From the IMG/VR virus record IMGVR_UViG_3300045988_144650: a DNA stretch of 64,000 nucleotides. One strand, 5' to 3'. Shown one piece after another: positions 13,669-61,926 of the stretch. The number at the start of each line of letters is the position of its first letter. Positions within the stretch are counted from its first letter, which is position 1. The notes below the pieces were generated by a model. That model had not been told where the DNA came from, did no database searches, and saw only the letters and a list, made by a program, of their open reading frames with translations. The translations under genes and the position numbers were made by a program. The DNA comes from a virus.

Positions 13669-14529
13669 TCACAGCCACCGCTCAACATAGTCGCGGTCTT
13701 GTGTGAAAATCGGAGGCTCCTTGTCGATAATCCATTTGCGTCTGGAAACCGTGATGGTCTTACCGGGATTTTTCGGGTCAGGCATATTGGTTTCCTCAGC
13801 TTGCCTATAGCAGCAAGAACCTCTCTTGCAATCCACGGGGAAATCGTTCCAGTTGATACCATGTACCTGCCACAGCATCTCCTGAATCATGTTTGTGGTC
13901 TTCTTATGAAGCTGATTAGCGCTGAAATACGCTTGTCCAACAGCCTCAATACTGTTCCTGGTGGCATCCTGCTGTCGCCAAATCAAGCAGTTGCAAACTT
14001 CATCTTTGGGAACTGAGAATGCACGAGAATCAAAAAGAGCACCCTTATTCAGCGCCCTCTTCAAAGTTTCTGCGTATTTGTTCAGTTCCTTTTTGATCTC
14101 AGGATCTTCGCCATACATACCACTCAGTACATCTTCCCGATTAAAATAATCATCAATGTTCTGATAGAGCGCCTTGTTAAAAGCCAGGGTTGCCAGCGAT
14201 GCTGAGATGCTGCACATCTTCTGGAGGTTATATCCAAACCACGCATCGGTTGTGATGGTCGCGTAGTCCGTCAAAACCAAAGTGATTTCGTCAGACTGTG
14301 TGTAGCCAAATACACAACCCTGAATATTGGCGCAGAGACTTTGCATGGTCTGTTGCATGGTTTTCATCAAGATAGAATCAAAAGGCTTTTTCATGCCCTT
14401 TGTAAAGGTGTGAAACGCCTTGCCGTCAATGCGGATCACAACTGGGACTCTGCGTGTCAGATAGCTACGAGAAATATTTTCATAGCTCTCTTTCATACGG
14501 TCACCCAAAGAGTCCTTCTTATTGCTCAT
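13669..14529 (-). CDS. Thg1-like protein (tRNA-His guanylyltransferase / 3'-5' polymerase family).
   Basis: VVIRIDGKAFHTFTKGMKKPFD...YTQSDEITLVL matches the Thg1 catalytic core (RIDGRxFHxF...KPxD...QSDEIS). Confidence 0.7.
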   Translation of the reverse strand: MSNKKDSLGDRMKESYENISRSYLTRRVPVVIRIDGKAFHTFTKGMKKPFDSILMKTMQQTMQSLCANIQGCVFGYTQSDEITLVLTDYATITTDAWFGYNLQKMCSISASLATLAFNKALYQNIDDYFNREDVLSGMYGEDPEIKKELNKYAETLKRALNKGALFDSRAFSVPKDEVCNCLIWRQQDATRNSIEAVGQAYFSANQLHKKTTNMIQEMLWQVHGINWNDFPVDCKRGSCCYRQAEETNMPDPKNPGKTITVSRRKWIIDKEPPIFTQDRDYVERWL

Positions 14530-25491: not shown

Positions 25492-26700
25492 CTACCTCTC
25501 TTCTTCGCCGGCTTTGAAATTATAGATCGGCTTAATAACCGAAATAATCTTTGCCGTCGGCTCAATATTGTCGACAATGTCTTCCATATTCTTGTATGCC
25601 ATAGGGCACTCATCAAGAGTGCTTTGACCTACAGATGTCGTATAAATTCCACTCATCTGCTTTTTGAACTCAGAAACTGTAAATGTCTGCTTTGCCGCAC
25701 TTCTGCTCATCAATCGACCTGCTCCATGAGGTGCAGAATAGTTCCAATCTTCATTACCCTTACCAATACAGATTAGACTTCCATCTCTCATGTTGATCGG
25801 GATCAGAAGTTTTTCTTCGTTCTGTGCAGAAACAGCTCCCTTTCGCAGAATCATATTATCCAAATCAATATAGTTATGAATTGTTGTAAATTGTTCAACA
25901 ACATGGAACCCCATGTTCTTTACAATAATATCCATCATAGCTTGCCTATTTAATTCGGCAAACTGCTGTGCAATTTGCATATCGTGCAAATATTGCTCGA
26001 ACAACTCACCCTCTACATAGGCTAATGCTTTAGGGATGGATGACTGCTTAGTCTTCATCTGTTTCAAAACGGTTTGAATTTCCTTTTGGCGACCGTCTTT
26101 TTTTAATCTCTGGACAACCTCATCAATTTCATCTTTACTGTATGAGGTTAATGATTTATAAGCAGCATCCTGATAATAATTAGCTATTTCCAACCCAAGA
26201 TGTCTGCTTCCAGAATGGACGACAATATAAATATTTCCATCATCGTCTTTATTTGCTTCAATAAAATGATTACCACCACCGAGTGTTCCGATGCTGTTAT
26301 AGGCGCGATCGGTATTAACTTTGTCTGCACAAAACAGTTTTGACAAATCGATACGATCAGAAAACTTATGTGGTCTCTTATGAATTTCAAACCCAGATGG
26401 AATACTTGATCGAATTACCTTGTCCAACTTTTGTGGTTCAATATGTGTCTCTTTCAGCCGGATGGTTTCCATTCCGCATCCAATATCAACCCCTACAAGA
26501 TTGGGGCATATCTTGTCCTTGATAGTCATTGTGGTTCCAATTGTACACCCTGCACCAGCATGAATGTCGGGCATCATTCGAACTCTGCTTCCCTCCATAT
26601 AGGGTTGATTCAGCAAATTTATCACCTGAGAGATAGATTCGTTGTCGACCACATCAGTAAATACTTTTGCAATGCCGTATTTTCCGCTCAACTCAAACAT
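25492..26700 (-). CDS. rtcB: RtcB-family RNA ligase (3'-phosphate/5'-OH).
   Basis: DIHAGAGCTIG, GGGNHF and HGAGR motifs. Confidence 0.85.
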   Translation of the reverse strand: MFELSGKYGIAKVFTDVVDNESISQVINLLNQPYMEGSRVRMMPDIHAGAGCTIGTTMTIKDKICPNLVGVDIGCGMETIRLKETHIEPQKLDKVIRSSIPSGFEIHKRPHKFSDRIDLSKLFCADKVNTDRAYNSIGTLGGGNHFIEANKDDDGNIYIVVHSGSRHLGLEIANYYQDAAYKSLTSYSKDEIDEVVQRLKKDGRQKEIQTVLKQMKTKQSSIPKALAYVEGELFEQYLHDMQIAQQFAELNRQAMMDIIVKNMGFHVVEQFTTIHNYIDLDNMILRKGAVSAQNEEKLLIPINMRDGSLICIGKGNEDWNYSAPHGAGRLMSRSAAKQTFTVSEFKKQMSGIYTTSVGQSTLDECPMAYKNMEDIVDNIEPTAKIISVIKPIYNFKAGEEER

Positions 26701-29527: not shown

Positions 29528-29637
29528 CTGGTGGAGAGGGATGGATTCGAACCACCGAAGCTTAATTGACCACACGGCGCCACAAGTCAAAAAGCGGAGA
29601 TTTACAGTCCCCGACTTTGGCCACTTGTCTACCTCTC
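29528..29637 (-). tRNA. tRNA-Tyr-like (anticodon GUA), atypically long at 110 nt with a ~39-nt variable arm.
   Basis: Acceptor GGAGAGG/CCTCTCC, anticodon stem-loop GGGGA-CTGTAAA-TCTCC, T-arm GGTGG-TTCGAAT-CCATC, 3' ACCA. The variable region GCTTTTTGACTTGTGGCGCCGTGTGGTCAATTAAGCTTC forms an extended hairpin. Confidence 0.55.
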
Positions 29638-29655
29638 CATATTGGTAAACTGGTC

Positions 29656-36075: not shown

Positions 36076-37221
36076 CTACTGGTTGAGATCCTCGCTCATG
36101 CTTTTCATAACATCGGTGTGGAACTTCTCATTGTTGTACTTGATTACGCTATCTACATACTCTTTTTCGACCATGCTGTAATAGTTGACCAAACCACGCA
36201 GAACCTGTACATCGTGCAGATCCCAATGGCGACCATTCTGCCGGTCGAGAATGTAGTTGCAAATCATTGCCCGCAAGCGCTGTTTGTTCTTATAACCAAT
36301 GGTGATCTCATTATCCTTATTGAGCATCACACCGAGGTTCCAATTACTTCCAGCGCGTGAGCCATAGCGCGTCTTTTCGTCTTTGATCTTAAAAGGAGCA
36401 CCAAACTCTGCGAGGGTAGAATTGATAAAGCCGATGATTTCATCCTTATCAAAACCCTTACGGCTTGAAAAGAGAGAGTCATCGGCATATCTGGTATATA
36501 CATAATGATTTCCATTGAAGTCACGCAGGCAATTGTTGATACGATGGTCAATGGGAATCATCATCAGATTTGTGAGCATAGGGGAAATAGGTGTTCCCTG
36601 CGGGAGACCACCGTTCAGGAAACACAGATCCAACGCTTTTTCCAAAGCATCAAATCCGCGCTGAGATTTTACGATCTCGCTAAATGGAAATACTTTGGAA
36701 AGCATAGACATCAGGAACTTCGGAGTTGTGCTGCCAAAGAAGTCAGAGAAGTCGGTCTTGAGGAACCAATGACTCTCATTCTTCTGATGACGCTTTACCG
36801 CGTCGATGGTAGATCTTCCGGGAACATAAGCAAATGCGCTGGTATGATACAGCGCAAACATCTGGGTTTCAAAAATCGTTTTCAGATTTCTGAGCGCATT
36901 CATCAGCGCTGGCTGCGGCGCATTGATCTCACGCAAGCCACCGGACTTCTTAGGGATATAGAACTTATCGTAGAGGTCGCTGCGCTTTGCCTCGTAAAGT
37001 TTAGCGTTCTGCTTGCAAAACTCTTCCAAGGTTACGACCATTGCATCAATATCAAAACGCTCAAGGAACTTGGGGTTCAGAACTTTGGAAAAGTAAGTTC
37101 TTGTGTTGGTCTCATTGGGGTTGACCATGTTGGCGAGATTGACATTCCCCGAAATAATTTCATCAAATGTGATCTGATGGAAAATCGGAGACTGCATCAG
37201 CGTAATGTAAGGCACTTCCAA
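36076..37221 (-). CDS. Reverse transcriptase, retron-type.
   Basis: RT motifs: IPKKSGGLREINAP (1/2), AYVPGRS, FLKTDFSDFFGS (A), GLPQGTPISPMLTNL (B'), YTRYADD (C), and a downstream KT....NLGVML resembling the retron VTG region. Start follows AAAGGAGG. Confidence 0.75.
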   Translation of the reverse strand: MEVPYITLMQSPIFHQITFDEIISGNVNLANMVNPNETNTRTYFSKVLNPKFLERFDIDAMVVTLEEFCKQNAKLYEAKRSDLYDKFYIPKKSGGLREINAPQPALMNALRNLKTIFETQMFALYHTSAFAYVPGRSTIDAVKRHQKNESHWFLKTDFSDFFGSTTPKFLMSMLSKVFPFSEIVKSQRGFDALEKALDLCFLNGGLPQGTPISPMLTNLMMIPIDHRINNCLRDFNGNHYVYTRYADDSLFSSRKGFDKDEIIGFINSTLAEFGAPFKIKDEKTRYGSRAGSNWNLGVMLNKDNEITIGYKNKQRLRAMICNYILDRQNGRHWDLHDVQVLRGLVNYYSMVEKEYVDSVIKYNNEKFHTDVMKSMSEDLNQ

Positions 37222-37574: not shown

Positions 37575-38456
37575 TTACATCTTTTTCAGAATCGCAAAGA
37601 ACTCCTCTTCATCAATCTCGATGATCTCCTGTGGAGCACTGAGAACCTCATAGTACCCATCGCCGTCAGGCTCATCTGAGATTAGGATTTCAGGATTGAG
37701 TTTCAAAGCTGGGCGCACCCCCACACAATCGTCGCAAGCACAGGCACTGCCGACATCGCCATCGCGATTAACGCAACGCACATTGTACGAGCGGCCAGAG
37801 TTCGGGGAGCGCAGGTAGTAGTACCACTCCTCGTCTTCATATTCGGGCTTGTCATTATTGGGAGTATTTGCGTACAGTTCGGGAGAGAACAGGCAGGCTC
37901 TGTTTGCACCATCCGCAAACAAATCCCAAACCTCACCCTCCTGAATACGGTTCTCAGTTCCACCGCCCACATTGGTTCTGGAGGGCATGAAAACCTTAGC
38001 ATAAATGGTTTCATACTTTTCGCCACCAGTAGGAATATCCTTGGTAGGCAGCGCCGTTTTGATCTCGGACTCCTCAATGGCTTCGACTTCCCACTCCTCA
38101 AAGTAGTGCAGGAAACCAGGCTTGTGAACATAGCCGTAGCGACCATTGTACATCAGGCGATCCTCGGGAGCCGTGTCGTGTTCGTGTGTCGGGCGGAACC
38201 AGTCTGTCCCCTCAGCATTCAGAAACTGATGACTGTTACTTAAGGAGTAGCGGTTATTACCGTAACTCCTGCGGTATTCGTCGGGGTTATCGGGCTCTTT
38301 GGCATCGAACGCACACTGATCTTCCATAAACTCGGTCAAGATCGTGCCGTCGCGATGAGCCTTTACCCAGCAAATCTTATGCGGCATCTCACCGCTGACG
38401 CTATAAGCGCCGAATTTCAGTTTTGCCCCGATGGGCAGGTCTGCGATAGTAGGCAT
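37575..38456 (-). CDS. Hypothetical protein.
   Basis: 293-aa ORF with a Cys cluster CACDDC near the C-terminus. Confidence 0.45.
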   Translation of the reverse strand: MPTIADLPIGAKLKFGAYSVSGEMPHKICWVKAHRDGTILTEFMEDQCAFDAKEPDNPDEYRRSYGNNRYSLSNSHQFLNAEGTDWFRPTHEHDTAPEDRLMYNGRYGYVHKPGFLHYFEEWEVEAIEESEIKTALPTKDIPTGGEKYETIYAKVFMPSRTNVGGGTENRIQEGEVWDLFADGANRACLFSPELYANTPNNDKPEYEDEEWYYYLRSPNSGRSYNVRCVNRDGDVGSACACDDCVGVRPALKLNPEILISDEPDGDGYYEVLSAPQEIIEIDEEEFFAILKKM

Positions 38457-44051: not shown

Positions 44052-44293
44052 ACACCTCCCTCATGTTGTCAGCGCTGAACTGAAACACACCGTTGAGGAA
44101 AACCTCAATGTGCTCACGAACCCATCTGATTTCGTACATAAGATTTCCTCCTTTTCCTCTTTGGTGAGATGGCTCTTTTTCTGCGTTGAAAATACAGAGA
44201 TTCTTTTTAAGGGTGACACCCCGAAAACCCGCATGAACACGGGCTTTTCTTTTTATTTTGCGACCGGAGTCGTCGCAAAACCGTTTCGGTCTG

Positions 44294-44345
44294 CTCTGCA
44301 TTTACACGGGCTTGCAACCGTTTTGGAAACCCAAAGCTGCATTAG
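44294..44345. repeat. Family-2 two-hairpin element, copy 1.
   Basis: CTCTGCATTTACACGG-GCTTGCAA-CCGT-TTTGG-AAAC-CCAAA-GCTGCATTAG. It is followed on the minus strand by TTGCGA-17-TAAAAA and a hairpin. Confidence 0.45.
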
Positions 44346-44426
44346 ACCAGGCGGGAAACCGCCTGACCGTAGAAAGGAAAGGAAGCCGAAAGCCAAAGCA
44401 TTCAGCAAAAGTCGCCATGTGGCGAT

Positions 44427-45237: not shown

Positions 45238-45275
45238 CTGAACACCTCCTTTTCCTGTTAAATTCAAAACTTTCC

Positions 45276-45321
45276 ACTCTGCATTTCTCATGCGGGCTTG
45301 TGACCGCCATTGGCTGCATTA
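45276..45321. repeat. Family-2 element, copy 4 (short form).
   Basis: CTCTGCATTTCTCATGCGG-GCTTGTGA-CCGC-CATTGGCTGCATTAG. The hairpin-1 stem changed ACGG/CCGT to GCGG/CCGC (compensatory). TTGAAT follows 9 nt downstream on the minus strand. Confidence 0.4.
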
Positions 45322-45549
45322 GAAAACCCCTCTTGAGAACAGGTAAGCAGCCGATTCACAAGAGGGGAATTTCCCCCGCGTTCAGGTGTTAATGCGGGAT
45401 TGTTTAATCAATCATAAACTTTAATCATTTGGATAACACCTGCCCAAAGCAAGAGGTCAGCGCTAACCCCTCACTCTCCGCATTTCGGGAATCTTTTCGC
45501 ATACGGTACGCCGCGTCAAGGCTCGTCGCGGAAAACCCTGCCAGGGATG

Positions 45550-45621
45550 TGACATGAGCAAGACTCGAACTTGCGACACGCCGGTCATATCCGGTTGCTC
45601 TACCGACTGAGCTATCATGCC
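45550..45621 (-). tRNA. tRNA-like element or pseudo-tRNA, with no encoded CCA and a noncanonical anticodon arm.
   Basis: Canonical D-arm TAGCTCAGTCGGTAGAGC and T-arm GCAAG-TTCGAGT-CTTGC with acceptor GGCATGA/TCATGTC. The anticodon region CCGG-ATATGA-CCGG gives only a 4-bp stem and a 6-nt loop. Confidence 0.4.
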
Positions 45622-46510: not shown

Positions 46511-46544
46511 AATCGGATCGTTTTTCAATTCAAGACCCTGCCCA

Positions 46545-46599
46545 CTCTGCGTTTACACGGACTTGTGACCGTTTGCAAAACCTTTGCAAGTCGCATTAG
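46545..46599. repeat. Family-2 two-hairpin element, copy 2.
   Basis: CTCTGCGTTTACACGG-ACTTGTGA-CCGT-TTGCAAA-ACC-TTTGCAA-GTCGCATTAG. Confidence 0.45.
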
Positions 46600-46633
46600 G
46601 CGCGGAGAGCCGAAACCCTCCGCGTTTGGGGAT

Positions 46634-47473
46634 TTATGCGGCAGCTTCAGCCTTCTTGACAACAACGGTCTCGGCTTCAGCAACCTTCTTGGAAGCCTTG
46701 GGCTTGGTCTGCTTAGCGGTTTCGGTCTTAGGTTCGGAACCTTCAGCCACATTGGAAGTGCGCTTGTGGTCGACACCGTAAGTGCCATTGGTAACTACGC
46801 GATGGAACACATCCATCAGCAAGCTCTGGAGGATGGTGTGCTTGGAACAGATAACCCTCAGAGCGGTCTTGTTGTTCTTCTTGGCGTAACAGAGCCAGAT
46901 GTAAGCCAGGTCATGGCTGTTCACGCGACCTTCGCCTTCGGAAAGAGAGTCCAAAACCTTCTGCATATGCTTAACGCACTGGGTATCGGAAGTCGGGGTC
47001 TTGCCAAGGTCGATTTCGGCAGCCAGCTTATCCATGCTGTAACTGTCGTCGATGGATTTCATTTCCTTTGCGGAAACCCCAAGCTCGGTGGCAGCCTTGA
47101 GGGTCAGGCGCTTGTTAAGAGCCTGCATCTCATAGAACCAACCCATGTCCAGGCTCTTGTACTCGCAGAACTTGCGGAGGTCAATCTGAACCATACGCTC
47201 AGACTTTTCGACGCCGGTCATAACGCCGTCCTCGGAGATCTTCTTGTGGGAAATGGTGGTGAAGTGGTGCTGCACGAGTGCTTCGTGAACATCAGCACAA
47301 GAAGCGAAAACCTCCTTCTCACGAAGGGCGCGGTAATCGTTCTCGATGTTCTTCAGCTCGGTAAGCTTGCCCTCAACCTCTGCGGCGGTGCCTTTGGCAC
47401 AAATCTTGTTGACCTCGGCGATTTTCGCCTCATAATCGGCAAGAAGTCGGGCTTTAATGTCTTTTGTTGCCAT
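46634..47473 (-). CDS. Hypothetical protein, 279 aa, with a Lys/Ala-rich C-terminal tail.
   Basis: Strong RBS AAAGGAG. The C-terminus reads KQTKPKASKKVAEAETVVVKKAEAAA. Confidence 0.45.
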   Translation of the reverse strand: MATKDIKARLLADYEAKIAEVNKICAKGTAAEVEGKLTELKNIENDYRALREKEVFASCADVHEALVQHHFTTISHKKISEDGVMTGVEKSERMVQIDLRKFCEYKSLDMGWFYEMQALNKRLTLKAATELGVSAKEMKSIDDSYSMDKLAAEIDLGKTPTSDTQCVKHMQKVLDSLSEGEGRVNSHDLAYIWLCYAKKNNKTALRVICSKHTILQSLLMDVFHRVVTNGTYGVDHKRTSNVAEGSEPKTETAKQTKPKASKKVAEAETVVVKKAEAAA

Positions 47474-48041
47474 AGTTCTTACTCCTTTATGGTTTATTTA
47501 TGGGCAAGCCCATAATGAAGCGCAGTAACCCTTGTGGAGCTACTGCGCTCGATATAGACTTGCGTAGCAAGGGCAAGCCCCTGCGCGCATAAACTTTTTG
47601 ATTGACAAATCATGCTCGCTCAAGTAATTCCCCTGGTCGCCTTACATCTGCGCTATACACCTCCTTGAAGCTTTCACGCATAACACCCAACTCTACCACG
47701 ATAGAGGCATCCTTGATACCTAAACCGCTTAACGGCTTTATCAAATGCTGCTCAGAAACCAGGCTGCATAAGTGAGCCAACACTTATTCACTTGCGCTTA
47801 TTCATATCGCTCAAAGGTCATAGTGACTATAACCTATTGCCGAGAACTCAATACTACCCGCGTTCAGTATCCGCGCACTCTGAACCTAACTTTCAGAATT
47901 TTTGGCTGACCTTCTCTTATGGCGGTTGAAGCCGCGCTCGTGGTAAGAGTACCCTTCTTTTGGTGGCAAAAGTACCCCTTGTGTATGCCCATCAAGGTGG
48001 CGCGTTGGATCGCTCAACCAAGTAAAAACCTGGTCGAACCA

Positions 48042-48099
48042 CTCTGCATTTATACGGGCTTGTGACCGTTCGCCGGAAACCTCCGGCAAGCTGCATTAG
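48042..48099. repeat. Family-2 two-hairpin element, copy 3.
   Basis: CTCTGCATTTATACGG-GCTTGTGA-CCGT-TCGCCGGA-AACC-TCCGGC-AAGCTGCATTAG. Confidence 0.45.
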
Positions 48100-48132
48100 T
48101 TCTTTGGGTCTTTCCGTGTGCGCTTTTGCGCT

Positions 48133-48376
48133 CGTTTCGGTTGCCCCATATACACGCACACGGCTGTATGTCACCCTGTGCGGTGTGGCTGTCCGTTTCG
48201 GTTGCCCCATATACACGCACACGGCTGTATGTCACCCTGTGCGGTGTGGCTGTCCGTTTCGGTTGCCCCATATACACGCACACGGCTGTATGTCACCCTG
48301 TGCGGTGTGGCTGTCCGTTTCGGTTGCCCCATATACACGCACACGGCTGTATGTCACCCTGTGCGGTGTGGTCGCG
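48133..48376. repeat. Tandem direct repeats, 61-bp unit x 4 (3.9 copies), GC-rich.
   Basis: The unit CGTTTCGGTTGCCCCATATACACGCACACGGCTGTATGTCACCCTGTGCGGTGTGGCTGTC repeats exactly at 48133, 48194, 48255 and 48316, with a divergent last unit. A partial fifth copy (TACGCACACGGCTGTATGTCACCC) sits at 49368-49392. Confidence 0.8.
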
Positions 48377-48457
48377 GTGTGCGCGGTATATGGTAGTCAC
48401 CAGAGCGCAAAAAAAGGAGGGGCGCGGTTGCCCCTCCTGCGGTGTGTGTATGCGGTT

Positions 48458-49231
48458 TTACCATCTTGCACGCTTGCGGAGAATGGTTTGCATTTCGTCA
48501 ATGTCCTCCGCCGTGTATCCTGCCTCCGTAAAGGCGCGAAGGTCGCGGTCAAGCTCTACCATGCGCGCAAGCACTTTGAAATATGCGCGGTATAAGGTCT
48601 GATATACTGTCGCGCGTTTGATGTTGAGCGCGTCCGCGATGTCCTGCGCGCTCTGTCCGTCCTGATATGCCATGTTGAGCACACGCGCTTGATTTTCGGT
48701 CATGTCGGCGGTTTCAACTGCCTTGCGCGTCAAGCGGTCAAGCGCGGGGAAGGTTGCCTTTGCGGTGCGCGGTGTGATGTTGCACGCGCTCCATCCCGGC
48801 AGATATTCGCGCTCGCTGTTGCGGTCGCGTTTCGCTTGTTCTGCGCGGATTGCGGAAAATGCCGCCGTTTTCAATGTGTGCATATCGGCGGAGGGGTTCT
48901 CTGCGAAAATGACAGCGAACGCAACGCAAGCGGTCATAATGTAGTCCTCCCTGTCCTCCGCTGTGCGCTTGAAGGGTTCTAATACTGCGTTATCGTTTCG
49001 CCGTTCCCAATTCTCCACACTGCGGAGGGTATGCTGTGCAAGTGCAAGCTGTCCTTCGCCATCCTGCGCGGTGCAGTACGGATATACACGGAAGGAGGCG
49101 CGGTCATGCTTGCCTTCCGCCTGCGCGGTTGCCTGCATGATGTTGTCAGCCTCCACAAGTGCGGTTTGCTTGACTGTTGCCTTCGTGGTTTCGGTTGCCT
49201 TGTTCAATACACAGATTTGATACAACATAGG
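48458..49231 (-). CDS. Sigma-70 region-4-like transcriptional regulator (late activator or ECF-like sigma candidate).
   Basis: C-terminal TENQARVLNMAYQDGQSAQDIADALNIKRATVYQTLYRAYFKV matches the sigma region 4 HTH. Likely start MLYQICV at 49231 after GGAAGGAAAG. Confidence 0.55.
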   Translation of the reverse strand, partial: PMLYQICVLNKATETTKATVKQTALVEADNIMQATAQAEGKHDRASFRVYPYCTAQDGEGQLALAQHTLRSVENWERRNDNAVLEPFKRTAEDREDYIMTACVAFAVIFAENPSADMHTLKTAAFSAIRAEQAKRDRNSEREYLPGWSACNITPRTAKATFPALDRLTRKAVETADMTENQARVLNMAYQDGQSAQDIADALNIKRATVYQTLYRAYFKVLARMVELDRDLRAFTEAGYTAEDIDEMQTILRKRARW

Positions 49232-49316
49232 TCTTTCCTTCCTGTCCATGGGATATAGTATAGTTTTCGGGATTGCTTGTGGTAGATTGCAAGCCCTGCC
49301 CCATGTGACATTATGG

Positions 49317-49345
49317 ATTATACCTCCGATTTTCCATGTTGTCAA
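49317..49345 (-). promoter_or_regulatory. Perfect-consensus sigma-70 promoter TTGACA-17-TATAAT (minus strand).
   Basis: Minus strand reads TTGACAacatggaaaatcggaggTATAAT, upstream of the sigma-like gene. Confidence 0.6.
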
Positions 49346-49731
49346 CAGTTTTTTTCACGGCGTTATTACGCACACGGCTGTATGTCACCCAATAGGAACG
49401 GAGGCGCGTGTGCGGTCATATATCTATGTTGCAAAATGGCACTATGCAACATGGGGGCGTGTTTTCCATATTTACGGCAGAACGGCGACCAGGCTATCCG
49501 GGTAGTTGCTCCACCACATTCACAGCCCTTTTCTCTCAACTTGACCCATCACCCCAAACGCCTGTAAACACAAGGAAAATAGGGCTTTTTATTGTCGGAG
49601 AGAGTGCCGTGATCATGCTGTTTAACCACGATGATCTCTTTGAGAATAAAAAGCCCGCCTTGCTGTAATGGCTTAAAAACGCACTTTAGCATTGGTGCAA
49701 AAAATATCAACAATTTTTTATGAAGAACCCC

Positions 49732-49759
49732 TTGACAAATGCTCCAAAATGAGTATAAT
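49732..49759 (+). promoter_or_regulatory. Near-consensus sigma-70 promoter TTGACA-16-TATAAT (plus strand).
   Basis: TTGACAaatgctccaaaatgagTATAAT, 55 nt upstream of the first plus-strand gene. Confidence 0.55.
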
Positions 49760-49814
49760 GGTATTGTAGTCAGTAGTTATTTACACGGCGAACAAGCAGA
49801 GAGGAGCAAAGCTC

Positions 49815-50633
49815 ATGGGTAACATCATTATGGTAGATTTCAACGCTATGCGTGAGAGTAGGGTGATCGACACTGCAGCAGTCAAGCAGTCACGGAGAGT
49901 TCTCCGAGAAGGTCTGATTGCACCGGCTATCGAGGATACTTCCTACCAGATTGCTGGCGAGCATACCAGTGATCCCATCAAGAGCATTGATGACATCTAC
50001 TCTATCTCCAACTGGTTTATCAGCCAGGGTAGATACAGAGACAATATGCTCTTTATCGTTGGCATCAACTTTGGTCTTCGTGTCAGCGATCTCCTCACGC
50101 TTCGTTTCTCCCATCTGATCGATGAACAGTTCAGGTTCAAGACCACCTTCCCCATTCTGGAGAAGAAGACCAAGAACACCAGAAAGGTTCAGAAGAACAG
50201 ATACATCACCATCAACGATGCGGTGGTCGATGCGGTCATGCTCTACCTTGAGCATACCCACGGTGTGAAGCTGAGTGACTATATGTTTCGTGGTGAGAGC
50301 AACCGGTGTGGTAGCGACAACAAGCCTATGCACCGCAACTCCGTCGAGAGAATTCTGAAAGAGGTTGGTACAGTCCTTGGTATCGAAGCTCATATGGCAA
50401 CCCATACACTTCGCAAGACTTTTGCCTATCATCAGATGCTGATTAGCAACAACGATCCTCGTAAGCTGCTGCTTCTGCAGAAGATGTTTGGACACAGCAC
50501 CTCGGCTCAGACATTGGACTATATCGGCATTACTGGCGAGGAGATCGAAGCTGCCTATATGGAGCTGAACCTCGGTGCCAGACATAAGCCTTACTTGGTG
50601 GACAGCACCATCGGAGAGATGGCTGCCTGCTAA
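49815..50633 (+). CDS. Small tyrosine recombinase (phage integrase family).
   Basis: Box I LRVSDLLTLRF, then HTLRKTF (HxLR) and the catalytic Tyr in SAQTLDYIG. Confidence 0.6.
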   Translation: MGNIIMVDFNAMRESRVIDTAAVKQSRRVLREGLIAPAIEDTSYQIAGEHTSDPIKSIDDIYSISNWFISQGRYRDNMLFIVGINFGLRVSDLLTLRFSHLIDEQFRFKTTFPILEKKTKNTRKVQKNRYITINDAVVDAVMLYLEHTHGVKLSDYMFRGESNRCGSDNKPMHRNSVERILKEVGTVLGIEAHMATHTLRKTFAYHQMLISNNDPRKLLLLQKMFGHSTSAQTLDYIGITGEEIEAAYMELNLGARHKPYLVDSTIGEMAAC

Positions 50634-50847
50634 CCCACCAACCCTGTACCTTGACAAACAGGCGCCTGTCGCCTCATATGACCATCACGATTCCTTATTT
50701 ACAATGTCCTTGGGAAGCTCTTTCTTTCACTGTTGTCTGACAGAGATTCTCTTTAAGGGCATCCCCAACTTAGGCCGGATTTCACAGGCCGAAAAATTCA
50801 TTTTGCGACCGCCTTGGTCGCAGAATTAGAAAAGAGGTAGCAAAACT

Positions 50848-51234
50848 ATGAGAAACAACTGGATCTTGCAGGCCGACGAGGACAATATCGCCGCCGCAAG
50901 AGGAGATTACGATGACTACGGATACGGCGGTACGCACCCAGTGTCCATCGGCGACGAGATCGCTGTGGACGACGAGGAGTGCTTCCAGAGCGGTATCGTA
51001 GTCGGCATTATTCGCAATATCTATGGCGTCCCCGTGTGCTATAAGGTGGTGAGCCGCGCGGACGCAAACGACACCGTGGGCGTGTTCGATTATATCTCTC
51101 CAGACAAGGTAACTGTCTGCGACCCTTGTGGGTCAGCATCATGGTCAGTCAGTCGCATTGGTTATGAGTGGACTGAGGATGATGCCGGTGGGCGCTTCTT
51201 CAATAAGCTGACGGGAGATGTGATCTTTTGGTAA
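50848..51234 (+). CDS. Hypothetical protein.
   Basis: 128-aa ORF. Confidence 0.4.
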   Translation: MRNNWILQADEDNIAAARGDYDDYGYGGTHPVSIGDEIAVDDEECFQSGIVVGIIRNIYGVPVCYKVVSRADANDTVGVFDYISPDKVTVCDPCGSASWSVSRIGYEWTEDDAGGRFFNKLTGDVIFW

Positions 51235-52577: not shown

Positions 52578-55412
52578 GTGGTTTGCTTACATCAGCCAGG
52601 ACGATTAACTTATTTTTTTGACAATTCAATACTTATTTATGAGGCGGTGAGCAACATTTCTAAACAACAGTCTTGCCAGAAGTTTATTTACAAGATACAT
52701 AGCGCACGCTTACGCAAGGCGAGGTGGAATTTGACTTTACCGATCTCCGAAGCTCGAAGAAACGACGAGGTCATTTCCTTAAGCGATAGCCAGATGCTGC
52801 GCTTCATAGATAAGCTGAACGGTATTGAAAACGGAGATGCGATTGCAAAAGGTATCAAAAATGAGATAAAAATGCTCAGAAAAGAGCCAAATTCCTTGCA
52901 AAATCGCAGAAAAATCAAGAAATTATACGAAAAACTGGACGAAATCCAGTATAAACCAGACTATATGTGTCTGATTATTGATAAGGAAAAGGATTACTGG
53001 CGTGCTTGCCGTGGCTTCAAGATCAACGGTTTGAAGTATGTGCGGCTGCTCGGAACCAACGGTGGCATCAAGAACTCCACCATCGTGTTCGTCAGCGAGC
53101 GGCTTGCGCCGGAGCTGAGGCGTCGAATCGACAACGGGCGCAATAAGGATATGGAGCTTGTCCCTGCCAAGTTGGAAGCATATCAGGCATTGGTGTGCAG
53201 CGGCTCTACTCCTGTGTCGATGCCAAAGGGTATCGCGGTCGTCAATGACTGTATTACCCACTTCAAGTCTGATGTGGTCAACCTGAATGACGAGACCGCC
53301 GGCGAGCCTGTGATGCAGTTTACCCCTGATGTCGATATTGAACTCAACGCTTCCGACGGATACGGACTGATGCTCCCGTCTTTGGCGAGAAAGTGGTCTG
53401 AAGAACTGAAGCTCGACTATATGGTTAGCGGTGTGAACACCCGCTTCTCGTGGGAGAAAGGTATGGTCTTTACATTCGACTTCCTTGCTTTTGCGGATGA
53501 GGTGGCAGGCACCCGCATCATCAAAGATGCTTGGGGTAACGATGTAGACCTGACCGATGTAGAGTTGATTCTTACGACTTCTATGCTTAAGCTTTGGGAC
53601 TCCTACGACAGTTGCGAGGATTATCTGAGAAACTGCGCGGAGAATGAGTACACATTTGGCATTGCCAAGACTTGTCCTAAACGGTTGGAGCGCGAGCGAA
53701 ATCTGAACTATCAGTTTATTCAGAGCTATGAGCTGACAAATGAACAGATTGAGGAACTGATTGCTCCTACCATCAATGAGATCCATGACATCTTGAGCCT
53801 TGACTGGCGTAAATCGGTTCTGTTCTTAAAGGGCGTTGGGCTTTCCGATGAAAACATCGACTATGTGGACGCCGACTTCGCCAAGGCAATCATGGTAGAC
53901 CGCAGGATGATGGAAGATCCGTTCGTCAGAAAAAAGATTTTCGCTCTAATCAAGAAGCGTATCACCGACGCCAAGATCGGTGTCATCAAGGTGCATGGCA
54001 ACTACTCCATCATTTCTGGCGACCCGTATGCTTTGTGTCAGAGTATATTTGGGCTTGAGATTACAGGTTTGCTGAAGACCGGCGAGATCTACAACAAGTA
54101 TTGGCTTGACAGTGGTTCCGAGAGACTTGCCTGTTTCCGGGCGCCTATGACTTGTCACAACAACATCCGCTTGATGCGAGTGGCGTCTGGCGAGGATGTT
54201 CAGAAGTGGTATCAGTATATGACTACTTGCACCATCCTTAACGCTTGGGACACATCATCGCAGGCATTGAACGGCTGCGACTTCGACGGTGATTTGGTGA
54301 TGTTGACTGACAATAAGATCCTCGTTGAGAATCTCGTTGAGTTGCCGGCTATCATGTGTGTGCAGCGCAAGGCTAAAAAGCGTGTGCCTACTGAGCAGGA
54401 TATGATCCAGTCCAACATCGACAGTTTTGGTGACGATATTGGCAAGATCACCAATCGTATTACTTCCATGTTCGATGTGATCGCCCAGTTTGAAAAAGGG
54501 TCTGAGGAATACGAAGTGCTGGACTACCGCATTAAGTGTGGTCAGCTTTTCCAGCAGAACGCCATTGATAAGGCTAAGGGCATTATTGCAAAGCCTATGC
54601 CGAAAGAATGGTATGACAGAAATTCCAATCGTAGCTGTGATATTGAGGATGAAGCACAGCGACAGTTTAATCTGCGAGTTATCGCTGATAAGAAACCGTA
54701 CTTTATGCGGTACATCTATCCTACGATGATGAAGCAGTACAATACATATATCTCCAACACTAACAAAAAGGCTATTCGCGAGTTCCGCCTGACAATTGAT
54801 GAACTGTTGGAGAAACCTACGGACGAACTCACTGATGACGAGCGCAACTTCATTCGTTACTACCACGCAAAGATGCCTGTTGGTGTACACGACTGCGTAA
54901 TGAACCGAATTTGCAGACGCTTCGAACAGGAGTTCGACGGATACATAGCCCGTCATAGCGGTGACTTTGAGTTTGACTACCGCATTATGAAGAGTGGGCA
55001 AGATTATACAACCACGCAGTACAATGCTGTGCTGCAGCTTTACAACGCTTATAATCGTCGCGCACAGGACTATATGCAGTATGCAAAGAAAGAGCGTGTT
55101 GACGACGATGAAAACGCTAACCAGAAGAGCGTAATGATCCAGGAATTTAAGAGCGAGTGTCAGAGCGTATGCTCCAACAATCTGCAACTGTGCGATATCC
55201 TGCTCGACATCTGTTACCAGAAAGAGGGCTCCAAACAGTTTGTTTGGGATATTGCAAGCGAGGAGATCATTGAGAATCTGCTGAACCGAAATGACAGGTA
55301 TATTTCCTACCCGGTGCTCAATGCCGAGGGCGATGTGGAGTTCGGCGGAGAACGGTTCTCTTTCTCAATAAAGCAGATTGGAGGAGATGCAGATGAGCAT
55401 TGTGTTGAATGA
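52578..55412 (+). CDS. Large protein with the DFDGD motif; YonO-like single-subunit RNA polymerase candidate.
   Basis: 944 aa containing NGCDFDGDLVML, which resembles the universal NADFDGD Mg-binding motif of double-psi beta-barrel RNA polymerases. The phage context and size match B. subtilis SPbeta YonO. Confidence 0.5.
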   Translation: MVCLHQPGRLTYFFDNSILIYEAVSNISKQQSCQKFIYKIHSARLRKARWNLTLPISEARRNDEVISLSDSQMLRFIDKLNGIENGDAIAKGIKNEIKMLRKEPNSLQNRRKIKKLYEKLDEIQYKPDYMCLIIDKEKDYWRACRGFKINGLKYVRLLGTNGGIKNSTIVFVSERLAPELRRRIDNGRNKDMELVPAKLEAYQALVCSGSTPVSMPKGIAVVNDCITHFKSDVVNLNDETAGEPVMQFTPDVDIELNASDGYGLMLPSLARKWSEELKLDYMVSGVNTRFSWEKGMVFTFDFLAFADEVAGTRIIKDAWGNDVDLTDVELILTTSMLKLWDSYDSCEDYLRNCAENEYTFGIAKTCPKRLERERNLNYQFIQSYELTNEQIEELIAPTINEIHDILSLDWRKSVLFLKGVGLSDENIDYVDADFAKAIMVDRRMMEDPFVRKKIFALIKKRITDAKIGVIKVHGNYSIISGDPYALCQSIFGLEITGLLKTGEIYNKYWLDSGSERLACFRAPMTCHNNIRLMRVASGEDVQKWYQYMTTCTILNAWDTSSQALNGCDFDGDLVMLTDNKILVENLVELPAIMCVQRKAKKRVPTEQDMIQSNIDSFGDDIGKITNRITSMFDVIAQFEKGSEEYEVLDYRIKCGQLFQQNAIDKAKGIIAKPMPKEWYDRNSNRSCDIEDEAQRQFNLRVIADKKPYFMRYIYPTMMKQYNTYISNTNKKAIREFRLTIDELLEKPTDELTDDERNFIRYYHAKMPVGVHDCVMNRICRRFEQEFDGYIARHSGDFEFDYRIMKSGQDYTTTQYNAVLQLYNAYNRRAQDYMQYAKKERVDDDENANQKSVMIQEFKSECQSVCSNNLQLCDILLDICYQKEGSKQFVWDIASEEIIENLLNRNDRYISYPVLNAEGDVEFGGERFSFSIKQIGGDADEHCVE

Positions 55413-57757: not shown

Positions 57758-58798
57758 GTGGCTTGTTTGCCGAGAAGCACACAGATGAATGATCTGACAA
57801 GCCCCGAGCTTGTCGCGCAGGTCAACCCCGAGAATCTGCGGCTAAAAAAGGATTTTCTGGATTATCTAAAATCCGTTCAGAGAAGCCCTGGTACAATTCG
57901 CGGTTACGAGAATGACCTTGATATCTTCTTCGTGTATTGCATGAAGAATCTTGGCAACAAGAACTTTGCAAATGTAAGTAAGCGAGATCTTGTTTCCTTC
58001 CAAAATTGGCTTATCAACGACAATGGAAATTCGCCGTCGCGAGTGCGGCGAATCAAGTCTGCAATCTCTTCTCTATCCAATTTTATCGAAGCAATTCTGG
58101 ATGACGAGGAAGAGTTTAAGAACTTCCGCTCTATTGTTCGTAAAATTGAGTCCCCCGTAAATCAGCCGGTTCGTGATAAGACGATCCTGTCAGAAGATCA
58201 GCTCAACAGTTTGCTGAAAATGCTGACGGATAGTGGCAAGCACGAAAAGGCTTGTATGCTGGCCTTGGCTATGCATTCAGGCCGAAGAAAGTCTGAGCTT
58301 GTGCGCTTTAGGGTCGATGACTTTAAGGACGAGAACTTGGTTTGCGGCGGTGCGCTGTATAAGACAAGCGAAACAATTAAGACCAAGGGCTTTGGACTTG
58401 GCAAATATATTTATTGCTACACACTGGCAAAAGATTTCAAACCCTACTTTGACCGCTGGATGGAACAGCGTGAGAAAGATGGTATTGTCAGTGAATGGCT
58501 GTTCCCGCTCAAGGATGATCCGACACAGCAGATGAAGCCCGAAACACTAAACAGTTGGGCAATATCTTTCGGAAAGCTGTTGGGCGTAGATTTCTATTGG
58601 CACTGTCTCAGACATTACTTTACAACCGACCTTGCCCGCTCCGGTTTGCCGGACGGTGTAATTCAGGAAATCATTGGTTGGACTTCAAGCGATATGGTTC
58701 GCCTGTATAAAGACCTGACTACCGAAGAGCAGTTGGATCAGTATTTTGATGAGACCGGTATCAAGGTTGTTCAGCCTACAAAGCTGAGCGATTTGTGA
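57758..58798 (+). CDS. Tyrosine integrase/recombinase.
   Basis: MHSGRRKSELVRFRVDDF (box I Arg), HCLRHYF (HxLR), catalytic Tyr in DMVRLY, and an N-terminal SAM-like core-binding domain. Confidence 0.8.
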   Translation: MACLPRSTQMNDLTSPELVAQVNPENLRLKKDFLDYLKSVQRSPGTIRGYENDLDIFFVYCMKNLGNKNFANVSKRDLVSFQNWLINDNGNSPSRVRRIKSAISSLSNFIEAILDDEEEFKNFRSIVRKIESPVNQPVRDKTILSEDQLNSLLKMLTDSGKHEKACMLALAMHSGRRKSELVRFRVDDFKDENLVCGGALYKTSETIKTKGFGLGKYIYCYTLAKDFKPYFDRWMEQREKDGIVSEWLFPLKDDPTQQMKPETLNSWAISFGKLLGVDFYWHCLRHYFTTDLARSGLPDGVIQEIIGWTSSDMVRLYKDLTTEEQLDQYFDETGIKVVQPTKLSDL

Positions 58799-59126: not shown

Positions 59127-60194
59127 ATGCCGAAGCAGAGTAAGATAACCAAATCGAGTCCGGGTGTGGCGGCGCCAATTAAGGATGCTCCCGATAAGTT
59201 CTATTGCACGCGGTGTCCGCGTGATTACACAAGGCAGAAAGGAAACTTCCCTGCCTCCCAAAGCCCGATCTACCGTGAGAACGGTGGCTATCTGCCTGTT
59301 TGCCGGCATTGTGTAGACGAAATGTACCAGCACTATAAGACTGTGCTTGGTGATGAAAAGTCTGCAATCCGCAGAATCTGTATGAAGTTCGATATTTATT
59401 GGAACGACAAGATTTACGGTATGCTTAATAAGAGCAGTACCACAAACTCTCGCGTTCTGAGTTATATCAGCAAGTCCAATTTGTATCAGTTTGTTGGTAA
59501 AACATTTGACGATACACTGGACGAAGAGAATGAGCTGATGCAGAGATCGTCCGATGTGGCTTTGGATGAAATTATTGCAGACAGCAATGAAGAGATTACA
59601 ATTTCGAGCGAAATCGTCGAATTCTGGGGCGCCGGTTTCGCTCCTTCATTTTACATTGATCTGGAGAGGCGCCTGAAATATTGGTGTGGTGACGCTGATC
59701 GCTACTCAATGGATGTCAGTGAATGCGCTATTATCAGACAGATTTGTATGTTGGAAGTTACGATTACTCGTGATACAGCCGCAGGTAAGTCAACTGATAA
59801 GTCAGTTAACGCATTGAACACATTGCTTGGTAGTGCAAACCTGAAGCCTGTCCAGAAAAAGAAAGAAGAGAATCTCGATGCAGCAGCAGAGTCAACTCCC
59901 TTTGGTGTGTGGATTCGCAAGATTGAAAACACTCGGCCTATTGCAGAGCCCGATCCGCAACTTAAGGATGTTGACGGTATCGCAAAATATGTTTCCGTTT
60001 GGTTCCTTGGTCATCTTTGCAAAATGATGAAGATCGAAAATACATACAGCCGTCTGTATGAAGAGGAAATGGCACGGCTTCGTGTTGAACGCCCTGAATA
60101 TGAGGGTGAAGACGAAGAAGCTGTGTTTGAAGATATTTTCGCCAGAGCCGATGAGAACGGAACCGATTTTGACGGTGAGATAGATGGCGAGTGA
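59127..60194 (+). CDS. Hypothetical protein with an N-terminal zinc finger, possibly a terminase small subunit or DNA-binding protein.
   Basis: CTRCPRD...CRHC Cys pairs. Its position immediately upstream of the terminase large subunit is suggestive. Confidence 0.35.
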   Translation: MPKQSKITKSSPGVAAPIKDAPDKFYCTRCPRDYTRQKGNFPASQSPIYRENGGYLPVCRHCVDEMYQHYKTVLGDEKSAIRRICMKFDIYWNDKIYGMLNKSSTTNSRVLSYISKSNLYQFVGKTFDDTLDEENELMQRSSDVALDEIIADSNEEITISSEIVEFWGAGFAPSFYIDLERRLKYWCGDADRYSMDVSECAIIRQICMLEVTITRDTAAGKSTDKSVNALNTLLGSANLKPVQKKKEENLDAAAESTPFGVWIRKIENTRPIAEPDPQLKDVDGIAKYVSVWFLGHLCKMMKIENTYSRLYEEEMARLRVERPEYEGEDEEAVFEDIFARADENGTDFDGEIDGE

Positions 60195-61926
60195 AACAAG
60201 AGAAGGTAGAATTTTGGCCGGCGTGGATGCGTGGGCTTCTTTTTATAGAGCCAACCCACACCGTTTTGCTGAAGACTACCTGAATGTCCACCTGCGATTG
60301 TTCCAGAAGATCCTGCTTTATATGATGAATATTTGCTATTTCTTCTGTTACATCGCTGCTCGTGGTCAGGGTAAATCCTGGCTTCTGGCTGTTTTCTGCT
60401 GTATTCGATGTATCCTATACCCCGGTACAAAAATATGTATTGCATCCGGCACACGAGGTCAGAGTATCAACATTCTTGAAAAGATCAAAATTGAGCTTTT
60501 GCCCAACTCTCCTCTTTTGAAAAATGAGATTGAGAACTTGGTCATTTCAAGTACAAATGCGTATGTTGATTTTAAGAATGGCTCCTCTATTAAGGTTGTT
60601 ACTGCGTCTGACTCCGCACGAAGCAACCGTGCCAACATTCTGTTGGTGGACGAGTTCCGTATGGTTAACAAAGACACTATTGAAACCGTCCTGCGCCGTT
60701 TCTTGACCGCCCCTCGTATGCCCGGGTATTTGCATAATCCAAAGTACGCTCACCTCAAAGAGCGTAACAAGGAAGTATATCTTTCCAGTGCTTATTTCAA
60801 GAGTCATTGGTCATATGAAAAGGTCAAAGACTACAAGGATAAAATGCTGGATGATACAACAAAGTATTTCGTGTGTGGCTTGCCGTATCAGCTTTCCATT
60901 AAAGAGGGGCTACTTGACAACAATGCGGTTGCAGACGAAATGTCAGAGGCCGGCTTTAATGAGACCAAATGGTCTATGGAGATGGAGTGTCTCTGGTTTG
61001 GCGACTTGGATGGTACATTCTTTGATTTTGACACTGTTTCTAAGAACAGAAAGATTGCTTACCCCATGTTGCCTGACGATGTGTCAATTAAGCTGACGGA
61101 CTCCAAAAAGGTAAAGATACTTCCGAAACAGAACGGCGAAAAGCGTATTCTATCGGTTGACCTTGCTTTGATGGCAAGTACGAAAAACAAAAACGACGCA
61201 TCCGCTATTTTCATCAATCAGTTGCTGCCAACAAAGGCAGGACGATATACGAATAATCTTGTGTACACAGAATCTTCTGAGGGCGCACATACTGCCGATC
61301 AGGCGCTACGCGTTCGAAAGTTGTATGAGATGTATATGTGCGACTACATCGTAATCGATGTTAAGGGTGTCGGCTTTGGTGTTGCAGATAGCTTGGTTAG
61401 AGACATTAACGACCCAGATACTGGTGAAGTTTATCCTGCTCTTTCCTGCTGCAACAATGCAGAGTGGGCTGCCCGTGCTCCTCATGGCGCTGAGAAAGCG
61501 TTGTGGGTTATTAACGCAACAGACAAATTCAATTCTGAGTGTGCAATTTTGCTTCGTGATGGATTTAGAGCCGGCAGAGTAAGATTGCTTGTATCTGAGT
61601 ATGACGGTGAGACAAGCCTTGCGGGTATCCGTGGCTATGGCTCTCTTGATGCTTCTGATAAACTGCAGCTTCAAATGCCGTATATCAATACTACGCTTCT
61701 GATCAATGAGCTGATCAATCTGCAGCATGATGAGACGAGCGGCTTTGTTAAAATCACCCGTAAAAAGGGTGTGCGAAAAGACCGTTATTCCAGTTTGAGC
61801 TATAGCTATTGGGTTGCTTGTCAGCTTGAAAGCAAGCTTAAGAAAAGAAATAGTTCTGCTTCTGAGAGTGATCAGGTGTTCATGTTCAGAGCACCAAAAG
61901 TTAAACAAGGAAGGCGGGTGAAATAA
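60184..61926 (+). CDS. Terminase large subunit.
   Basis: Walker A AARGQGKSW, Walker B ILLVDEF and a C-terminal RNaseH-like nuclease region. It lies just upstream of the portal-sized gene. Confidence 0.7.
   Translation: MASETREGRILAGVDAWASFYRANPHRFAEDYLNVHLRLFQKILLYMMNICYFFCYIAARGQGKSWLLAVFCCIRCILYPGTKICIASGTRGQSINILEKIKIELLPNSPLLKNEIENLVISSTNAYVDFKNGSSIKVVTASDSARSNRANILLVDEFRMVNKDTIETVLRRFLTAPRMPGYLHNPKYAHLKERNKEVYLSSAYFKSHWSYEKVKDYKDKMLDDTTKYFVCGLPYQLSIKEGLLDNNAVADEMSEAGFNETKWSMEMECLWFGDLDGTFFDFDTVSKNRKIAYPMLPDDVSIKLTDSKKVKILPKQNGEKRILSVDLALMASTKNKNDASAIFINQLLPTKAGRYTNNLVYTESSEGAHTADQALRVRKLYEMYMCDYIVIDVKGVGFGVADSLVRDINDPDTGEVYPALSCCNNAEWAARAPHGAEKALWVINATDKFNSECAILLRDGFRAGRVRLLVSEYDGETSLAGIRGYGSLDASDKLQLQMPYINTTLLINELINLQHDETSGFVKITRKKGVRKDRYSSLSYSYWVACQLESKLKKRNSSASESDQVFMFRAPKVKQGRRVK

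Follow-up and report, generated by a model that had tools for sequence, protein, structure and literature searches.

A tandem repeat array between a sigma-like gene and a twister ribozyme match in a large phage: a candidate sigma-specific promoter module

The virus record IMGVR_UViG_3300045988_144650 was analyzed over a stretch of 64,000 nucleotides (nt), which we call the window throughout. It derives from a large phage, with related contigs of 61-139 kb, and contains a 61-bp sequence repeated in tandem between a gene for a sigma-like protein and a match to a self-cleaving twister ribozyme. Here we describe this array and its neighbors, compare them with ~35 related metagenomic phage loci that we retrieved, and argue that the repeats may be promoters dedicated to the sigma-like protein. 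The array sits where gene orientation switches, with minus-strand genes to its left and a plus-strand block to its right that holds genes for a YonO-like RNA polymerase, the large terminase subunit, and the portal protein.

Tandem Repeats Finder placed the array at positions 48133-48371, with a period of 61 bp, 100% matches, and 3.9 copies, a copy number to be read with caution, as short-read assembly of a perfect repeat makes it unreliable; an independent repeat search concurred. On the minus strand, each unit consists of a 33-nt core and a 28-nt spacer that is free of T and rich in C and A. The core closest to the ribozyme (copy 4, 48144-48176) reads GGGTGACATAC-AGCCGTGTGCGTG-TATAT-GGGG, and copies 3 (48205-48237), 2 (48266-48298), and 1 (48327-48359) have the same sequence on the same strand. 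The conserved right part of the core, ACAGCCGTGTGCGT-TATAT-GGGG, is preceded by a 10-nt block. For copy 4, this gives a variable block at 48175..48166, conserved AGCCGTGTGCGT at 48165..48154, TATAT at 48152..48148, and GGGG at 48147..48144. A distal fifth copy (49368-49390, minus strand) is an exact match to the first 23 nt of the core (ACGCACACGGCTGTATGTCACCC), followed by a -10-like TAATAA, and lies ~24 nt upstream of the -35 element of the sigma-like gene's own promoter. In total, the window holds five motif matches at up to 3 mismatches versus 0.00 expected (none in 100 shuffles), and a regulon search of the 64 kb found neither the motif nor its halves anywhere beyond the array and the distal copy.

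After each core comes a T-free, C/A-rich run (48099-48147, 48174-48208, 48235-48269, and 48296-48330, minus strand). The one that begins at the GGGG of the last core and reaches the predicted ribozyme cleavage site spans 49 nt (48099-48147), is the longest in the window (0.007 expected), and is proposed to be a U-less initial transcribed leader. The T-free property is common to most of the relatives, at 30-71 nt. A U-free start of a transcript is a feature without an established explanation. Within the core, GTGTGCGTGTATAT (48148-48161, minus strand), made up of AGCCGTGTGCGT and the GTATAT that follows, is a perfect 14-nt tract of alternating purines and pyrimidines, and most lineages keep the alternation even with different bases, e.g., GTGTGCATATATAC. 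The right half of the core also recurs in inverted, degenerate form (CGCGTGTGCGGTCATATATC) at 49405-49424 on the plus strand, pointing towards the plus-strand block.

The sigma-like gene (48458-49228, minus strand, ATG at 49228) encodes 256 amino acids (aa), with an N-terminal beta domain, a helical middle, and a region-4 helix-turn-helix (HTH). Pfam Sigma70_r4_2 matches its C terminus at E=1.3e-8, above the curated cut-off. An AlphaFold model (predicted local distance difference test score, 86) comprises the N-terminal beta domain, three long helices, and the C-terminal HTH. The top Foldseek matches of this model are full-length extracytoplasmic function (ECF) sigma factors, with SigL, SigE, and SigH aligned full length at probabilities of 0.99-1.00 but with template modeling scores of 0.2-0.3. 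TIGR02937 spans residues 91-220, scoring 32 bits, under its 42.9 cut-off. Region 4 is certain and, going by the predicted fold, region 2 is likely; we lean slightly towards the protein being an ECF-like sigma factor, or at least a sigma-4-type activator. It has 76 homologues in metagenomes (36-99% identity) and none in 50,697 deposited phage genomes searched by tblastn, and the family appears to be new and without a cultured-phage homologue. Relatives of the gene were also absent from 185,579 species-representative bacterial genomes, in which no integrated copy, host, or prophage was identified.

A perfect TTGACA-17-TATAAT promoter of the housekeeping type precedes the gene (49317-49345, minus strand), and an intrinsic terminator with a 9-bp GC-rich stem and a T run (48415-48438, minus strand) lies between the gene and the array, which implies that the downstream block needs a promoter of its own. 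The original prediction, made from the letters of the sequence alone, had already recognized this promoter, the sigma region-4-type HTH, the junction between the strand blocks, and a GC-rich island; for the last, we measured a GC content of 0.54-0.59 over 47900-49250 (0.58 at the array and gene) versus ~0.44-0.49 elsewhere in the window. Some of its boundaries needed adjustment. The array was tandem as described, but instead of four copies up to 48376, it ends at 48371 with its last copy slightly truncated; the distal copy, given as 24 bp at 49368-49392, recurs exactly but is 23 nt long and ends at 49390; and the minus-strand gene is present, but its given end of 49231 is one codon too far. 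The twister match, although within the noted interval, had been overlooked.

This match, to the type-P1 twister self-cleaving ribozyme (Rfam RF03160; 48036-48102, minus strand), has its predicted cleavage site between 48098 and 48097. With 65.3 bits (E=1.7e-14), it falls just short of the gathering score of 67.2; it covers the full-length model and has nearly all of the conserved consensus nucleotides. Its position argues that the array heads a transcription unit. The covariance model found further twister-P1 matches on the minus strand at 46602..46539, 45325..45271, and 44348..44288, so that the window has four, at 48-65 bits and E from 1e-7 to 1e-12, just below the Rfam gathering score. Twister matches are present in all complete relatives, and their stem sequences differ (CCGGAGGTTTCCGG in the window versus GGGCAAGTTACACTTGTCT in L032). 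Between the first ribozyme and the first open reading frame (ORF) of the unit lies a conserved non-coding leader of ~560 nt (47474-48035, minus strand), which folds better than shuffled sequences (z=-4.7) and has 18 base pairs with compensatory changes in its first ~300 nt among six sequences (the window, L004, L007, L009, L011, and L032). No Rfam family matched it, which makes it a candidate new structured RNA. The ORF that follows (46634-47473, minus strand) encodes 279 aa of no known family, is kept in all relatives, and is itself followed by the second twister match (46539-46602).

Some side observations belong with these ribozymes. The 279-aa gene has a ribozyme match on each side, and the twister matches are interleaved with ORFs and two tRNAs across the first 4 kb of the minus-strand unit. 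Some relatives have RAGATH-4-like matches in the leader (L007, 5577-5707; L011, 5691-5825; L012, 5628-5761) at 44-69 bits, under the gathering score of 104; these are absent from the window. An association between twisters and phage genes is known, with its biological role unexplained (PMC6765202).

The ~35 related loci repeat this layout, motif copies included. The order is recombinase, divergent sigma gene, terminator, one to four motif copies, twister-P1, structured leader, and 279-aa gene. In the core lineage, gene order is invariant and the gene after the non-coding region encodes 278-292 aa. Every motif copy has the same orientation, towards the downstream genes. The core consensus on the sigma-sense strand, taken from 12 non-redundant units, is GGtG.ca.ACAgCCGTGTGCgTgTATAtgGGG. 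With the window included, copy number ranges from 1 to 3.9, and the period depends on the lineage: 60 bp in L005 (3.2 copies), 61 bp in L007 (3.2 copies) and L009 (2.8 copies), 81 bp in L035/L036 (2 copies) and L037 (at least 2 copies), and 94-104 bp in L012/L015/L025 (3 diverged copies). Four loci (L011, L024, L032, and L019) have a single copy and no period, and in the first three of these, one copy evidently suffices. That lineages differ in period (60/61, 81, or 94-104 bp) suggests that the core was amplified independently among them. In the diverged array of L012, 32 of the 34 core positions are invariant across the three copies versus 36% of the columns after alignment column 44, which suggests that selection acts on the core in every copy.

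In L018/L019, the phage backbone is a different one, and a 57%-identical sigma gene is accompanied there by its terminator, a single motif copy, and a RepB-RCR_reg-like neighbor, with no recombinase, RNA polymerase, or twister nearby. These two loci suggest that the sigma-terminator-motif cassette is mobile. Finding relatives depended on the search used: megablast of 47000-51000 against 50,697 phage records returned only a 32-nt chance match, exact 61-mer and 23-mer searches of IMG/VR gave no match, and a single-protein locus search of IMG/VR was empty, while an alignment-based search yielded six loci. Contig structure also needs care, as 21 of 30 contigs end within 400 nt past the sigma gene (all but two of these within ~180 nt) and N-gaps interrupt the array in two scaffolds (L004 and L027). 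We attribute these ends and gaps to assemblers failing on the repeat and not to genome ends, as there are other contigs, 61-131 kb long, that run straight across the array.

The 10 nt directly upstream of ACAGCC vary as one block, and they do so together with the recognition helix of the HTH, falling into five classes. Seven distinct lineages, whose proteins are 63-99% identical, pair the helix RATVYQ[TS]LYRA with block GTGACATAC, and four lineages pair R[TP]AVYRALYRA with GACGGTAAC. The other pairs are QSTVRDALATA with AATGCCACTC (L020), RQNVYKNLAKA with GGGGGGTGAC (the class D lineages), and KAAAALSVNRA with CTCTGACATACC (L018/L019). Between the units of L020 and L005, the block is wholly different and the rest identical, a pattern that, at the sequence level, resembles a swap of specificity more than drift. 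Residues distinguishing the classes align with part of the region-4 helix of Escherichia coli sigma-E, which we take to be the part that contacts the -35 element in the sigma-E/DNA structure. The upstream copy shares with the array copies both the block and lineage-specific changes in mid-motif, and upstream copies in all lineages have a TAnnAT-like hexamer at a fixed position. The sigma genes of L020 and L026 are chimeric, with the C-terminal HTH and the downstream array forming one module and the N terminus and upstream region coming from another class. L026 joins a class A N terminus to a class B C terminus; its upstream copy has been lost, and AT-rich sequence stands in its place.

Several other identities for the repeats were considered and rejected. 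As an RNA family, the repeat itself gave only chance-level mir-210 matches (E=1.4). The array RNA is more stably folded than shuffles (z=-4.2), and its hairpin is not kept in class D lineages. Protein-coding repeats do not fit, as 61 is not a multiple of 3, periods vary by lineage, and the 33-nt core alone is conserved; ORFs of 76-177 aa do traverse the array on both strands. The units run head to tail and are identical over all 61 bp with no unique spacers, unlike an array of clustered regularly interspaced short palindromic repeats. An inverton, or invertible promoter, was rejected since the inverted repeats found flank neither promoter and all ~35 loci have the same orientation; the sole inverted-repeat pair spanning the whole region is only 75% complementary.

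Taken together, these observations lead us to give a probability of roughly 55% to the array being a tandemly amplified, private promoter module, specific to the sigma-like factor and heading a long phage operon. From the anatomy, the conservation, the helix co-variation, the sigma-like fold, and the ribozyme match, we infer a scheme for the binding, the transcription start sites, the RNA polymerase used, and any benefit of the extra copies. Each unit on the minus strand would combine the 10-nt specificity block, ACAGCCGTGTGCGT, a -10-like TATAT, GGGG, and a U-less, C/A-rich transcript start. The host RNA polymerase would first express the sigma-like factor from its consensus housekeeping promoter. 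The region-4 helix would then read the specificity block, and the factor would drive transcription from each repeat into the minus-strand block, with its structured leader, 279-aa gene, tRNAs, RtcB, and other genes. The twister, 41 nt downstream, would remove the variable 5' leader, so that downstream RNAs started at any of the repeats would share one 5'-OH end. Upstream of the sigma gene, the fifth copy could serve as an optional autoregulatory promoter or operator, providing feedback. Amplification would raise promoter dosage, and recurrent amplification with three periods, together with intact cores in old copies, argues that it is useful. A binding array for the regulator was among the options of the original prediction; it is the one favored here, sharpened to a putative promoter by the co-variation of block and recognition helix and by the predicted ECF-type sigma fold.

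A number of points weigh against this interpretation. The block lies ~17 nt upstream of TATAT in the arrays, and judged by its sequence, the motif is off the usual ECF AAC-N16-CGT spacing. TATAT is also a poor housekeeping -10 element. Block and TA-rich hexamer are 2 nt closer together in the upstream copies than in the arrays, and class D has the block 4 nt closer. Conservation within the motif peaks in the presumptive spacer, AGCCGTGTGCGT, a pattern that simple -35/-10 recognition does not account for. On the protein side, hhalign against E. coli RpoE aligned region 4 only, and it is the fold search alone that backs a sigma-2 domain. The upstream copy of L020 is of the wrong class, and with the loss in L026, this mismatch suggests that the upstream copy is dispensable. 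Moreover, the region coding for the helix is ~250 bp from the array, so that part of the co-variation could be recombination linkage. The motif occupies just two sites within the 64 kb, which leaves no regulon to examine, and we infer the promoter function of the repeats from sequence and layout.

An unlikely alternative is that the sigma-4-type protein is an ordinary activator or repressor, or is titrated by a sink of binding sites, with the repeats acting as operators or decoys and not as promoters. The minus-strand block would then be transcribed from elsewhere, e.g., by read-through. The co-variation of helix and block would indicate binding at most and not initiation, a sigma-2 domain in the protein is not proven, and the upstream copy, at about -59 to -81 from the consensus promoter, has a typical activator or operator position. 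This explanation has to contend, however, with the strong terminator between the sigma gene and the array, and with the fact that every copy, always in one orientation, combines a TA-rich hexamer with GGGG and then a stretch lacking U. In addition, no other promoter-like site was found between the array and the twister from which transcription could begin.

It is also possible, though we consider the chance small, that only one copy matters and that the extra ones arose neutrally, by slippage or unequal recombination, or are in part assembly artifacts. Copies that are 100% identical in most lineages imply recent turnover, single-copy relatives are viable, and copy numbers from short reads are unreliable. 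What speaks for a promoter array in which the copies count is that arrays arose independently with three different periods and that the diverged L012 array keeps an intact core in every copy.

Alternatively, the repeats could be promoters for the phage's own single-chain polymerase, whether or not the sigma-like protein serves it as a specificity factor, and this we likewise regard as quite improbable. The polymerase is of the YonO type, with two barrels (52578-55412, plus strand; PF05183 is recorded for its orthologue in related loci), and its identity is 42% to that of Clostridium phage c-st, ~40% to those of Enterocloster phages PMBT24 and CB457P1, and 27% to SPbeta YonO. A contiguous motif ending in TATAT-GGGG with a U-less start resembles the promoters of phage single-subunit polymerases, such as those of the T7 type. 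A single private promoter site also precedes a structured non-coding leader here. SPbeta offers a parallel: there, YonO transcription of a long operon begins at one site, which lies upstream of a non-coding RNA that is not annotated, and the promoter and cofactors of YonO are unknown (PMC5467207). The SPbeta YonO promoter region (PMC5467207) resembles ours in the polymerase type, in the single start region before a non-coding RNA and a very long operon, and in the twice-occurring phi3T motif described below. There is no sequence similarity, the genomic position is different, and neither the SPbeta group nor c-st, PMBT24, or CB457P1 has a homologue of the sigma-like protein despite their related polymerases. 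YonO lacks most conserved domains of multi-subunit polymerases (PMC5467207), which would make canonical docking of a sigma factor on it unlikely. Furthermore, synteny with SPbeta and phi3T predicts a plus-strand site downstream of the polymerase and HU genes, and the region upstream of phi3T yonK has no sequence similarity to our motif. A literature search on YonO and yonK after 2018 returned nothing relevant. A bolder version, in which the sigma-like protein is the missing promoter-specificity factor of YonO-type polymerases and the repeats are a cluster of ~33-nt YonO-type promoters, with transcripts trimmed by the twister and perhaps rejoined by RtcB, seems to us highly doubtful. Upstream of yonK in Bacillus phage phi3T (L033), which is the reported region of the SPbeta YonO promoter (PMC5467207), a 26-nt motif (CAGTTGRCARGCAACATAAAAACTTG) occurs twice, 109 bp apart (9133-9270), and is followed at 9455-9520 by a DUF3800-VIII RNA match of 44.7 bits, above the gathering score.

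The original prediction had also named an iteron-type replication origin as an option. In such an origin, the repeats would bind an initiator and the copy near the gene promoter would autoregulate it, as in iteron plasmids. Direct repeats do adjoin the gene of a DNA-binding protein, as iterons do, with a partial extra copy at its promoter, and the site coincides with the strand switch and a minimum of cumulative GC skew (46-52 kb). That minimum is confounded by the switch in gene orientation, however, and copy number, spacing, base composition, and protein fold all differ from those of iterons. Relatives L011, L024, and L032 have a single copy. The period may be 60/61, 81, or 94-104 bp, not in helical phase, and the array and its sides have a GC content of 0.54-0.59 between flanks of 0.45-0.48, with no AT-rich unwinding element. 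Structural and profile matches are to sigma factors and HTH regulators, with no Rep or winged-helix initiator among the top structural matches. Strict orientation and a ribozyme directly downstream indicate transcription instead, leaving an origin very unlikely. The suggestion that the repeats serve recombination or packaging (as att, as pac, or as the substrate on which the neighboring tyrosine recombinase acts) has next to no chance of being correct: a recombinase gene always adjoins the sigma gene, as an integrase would adjoin attP, and many contigs stop at the array, but such ends are expected from assemblers at perfect repeats and other contigs pass through, the block co-varies with the sigma C terminus and not with the recombinase side (L020), the large terminase gene (60184-61926, plus strand) is 12 kb away, a second, larger integrase (a tyrosine recombinase) is encoded at 57758-58798 (plus strand), the motif occurs nowhere else in the window, all loci have one orientation with no sign of inversion, and the 185,579 species-representative genomes hold no integrated copy or prophage junction, although absence there is not proof.

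Among known systems, the ECF group 4 sigma factors (E. coli sigma-E, Bacillus subtilis sigma-W, and Mycobacterium tuberculosis SigL) provide the best structural matches, spanning the sigma-2-like and sigma-4 parts. In common with them, too, a copy of the target motif precedes the gene that encodes the factor, and changes of specificity fall in the region-4 recognition helix. The phage protein departs from them in carrying additional parts, a beta domain at the N terminus and a tail at the C terminus, and in having a gene that is preceded by a perfect housekeeping promoter and not accompanied by one for an anti-sigma factor. The motif lacks the AAC-N16-CGT architecture, and sequence scores are under the family cut-offs except for region 4. 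The ArpU/RinA/Ltr (DUF1492) late activators of Firmicutes phages are likewise small proteins encoded directly upstream of the operon that they supposedly switch on, and DUF1492 matches our protein weakly (E=1.4e-3, below the Pfam cut-off). Their target is the terminase and structural operon, however, which in this phage is on the other strand, and we know of no tandemly repeated targets for these activators. Several promoters are stacked in the same direction before one transcription unit in T7 A1-A2-A3 and rrn P1-P2, as they would be here. Those are distinct promoters of the housekeeping sigma factor, whereas the present ones would be exact copies, variable in number, and served by a private factor. 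With its four twister-P1 matches and the RAGATH-4-like matches of related loci, the downstream unit resembles the twister and hammerhead neighborhoods of Firmicutes phages and prophages. In a non-exhaustive literature search, we found no earlier description of a promoter array directly upstream of a first ribozyme. Precedents exist for phage sigma factors, for autoregulated ECF promoters, and for tandem promoters; what appears to be new is the amplification of a private promoter in exact copies of variable number, the discrete specificity classes, and the placement directly ahead of a self-cleaving ribozyme.

If the promoter interpretation is correct, a sigma gene, a terminator, and the factor's own promoter would make up a compact, portable cassette. 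Large gut phages of Clostridia would have at least five specificity classes of it, which appear to be orthogonal, and tandem amplification would tune the promoter dosage. Such cassettes would be ready-made orthogonal sigma/promoter pairs and a natural case of promoter copy-number evolution, and they would give a ribozyme-punctuated operon a defined transcription start. The first twister would have a job here, namely to remove a leader whose length varies. The locus is also relevant to the division of transcription between host and phage enzymes in phages with YonO-type polymerases.

Beyond the array, the divergent plus-strand block opens with a perfect TTGACA-16-TATAAT promoter (49732-49759), followed by the gene for a XerC/D-like tyrosine recombinase of 272 aa (49815-50633, plus strand), the one that always adjoins the sigma gene in the core lineage. 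Inverted repeats occupy the divergent intergenic region at 49426-49452 and 49582-49656. One of them, ATGTTGCAAAATG/CACTATGCAACAT, is partly kept in relatives and may be an operator or a recombinase site, and the second forms a hairpin with 22-nt arms. Also on the plus strand are genes for a YonV-like protein, an SbcD-like exonuclease, an HU-like protein, and the portal protein. Two tyrosine recombinases and a CI/LexA-like repressor (5700-6494, plus strand) suggest a temperate lifestyle.

The minus-strand block left of the array encodes tRNAs, a reverse transcriptase, a Hoc-like protein, RtcB, a CCA-adding enzyme, and other nucleotidyltransferases. The RtcB RNA ligase gene (25492-26700, minus strand; phrog_1075, 8e-144) is on the same strand as the twisters, as are those for the CCA-adding enzyme and another nucleotidyltransferase (14519-15871 and 15864-16886, both minus strand). 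RtcB joins 2',3'-cyclic-phosphate and 5'-OH ends, the very ends that twister cleavage yields, and ligation or circularization of ribozyme-flanked RNAs by RtcB is conceivable. Seven tRNA matches were found in the window. Two tRNA calls are unusual (29532-29638 and 45549-45621, both minus strand): the first is a 107-nt Rfam match, not called by ARAGORN, with a possible intron, and the other is an ARAGORN call without an anticodon. The reverse transcriptase gene (36076-37221, minus strand; phrog_2825/1423) adjoins that of the Hoc-like Ig-domain protein (37575-38456, minus strand), and the pair may represent a diversity-generating retroelement.

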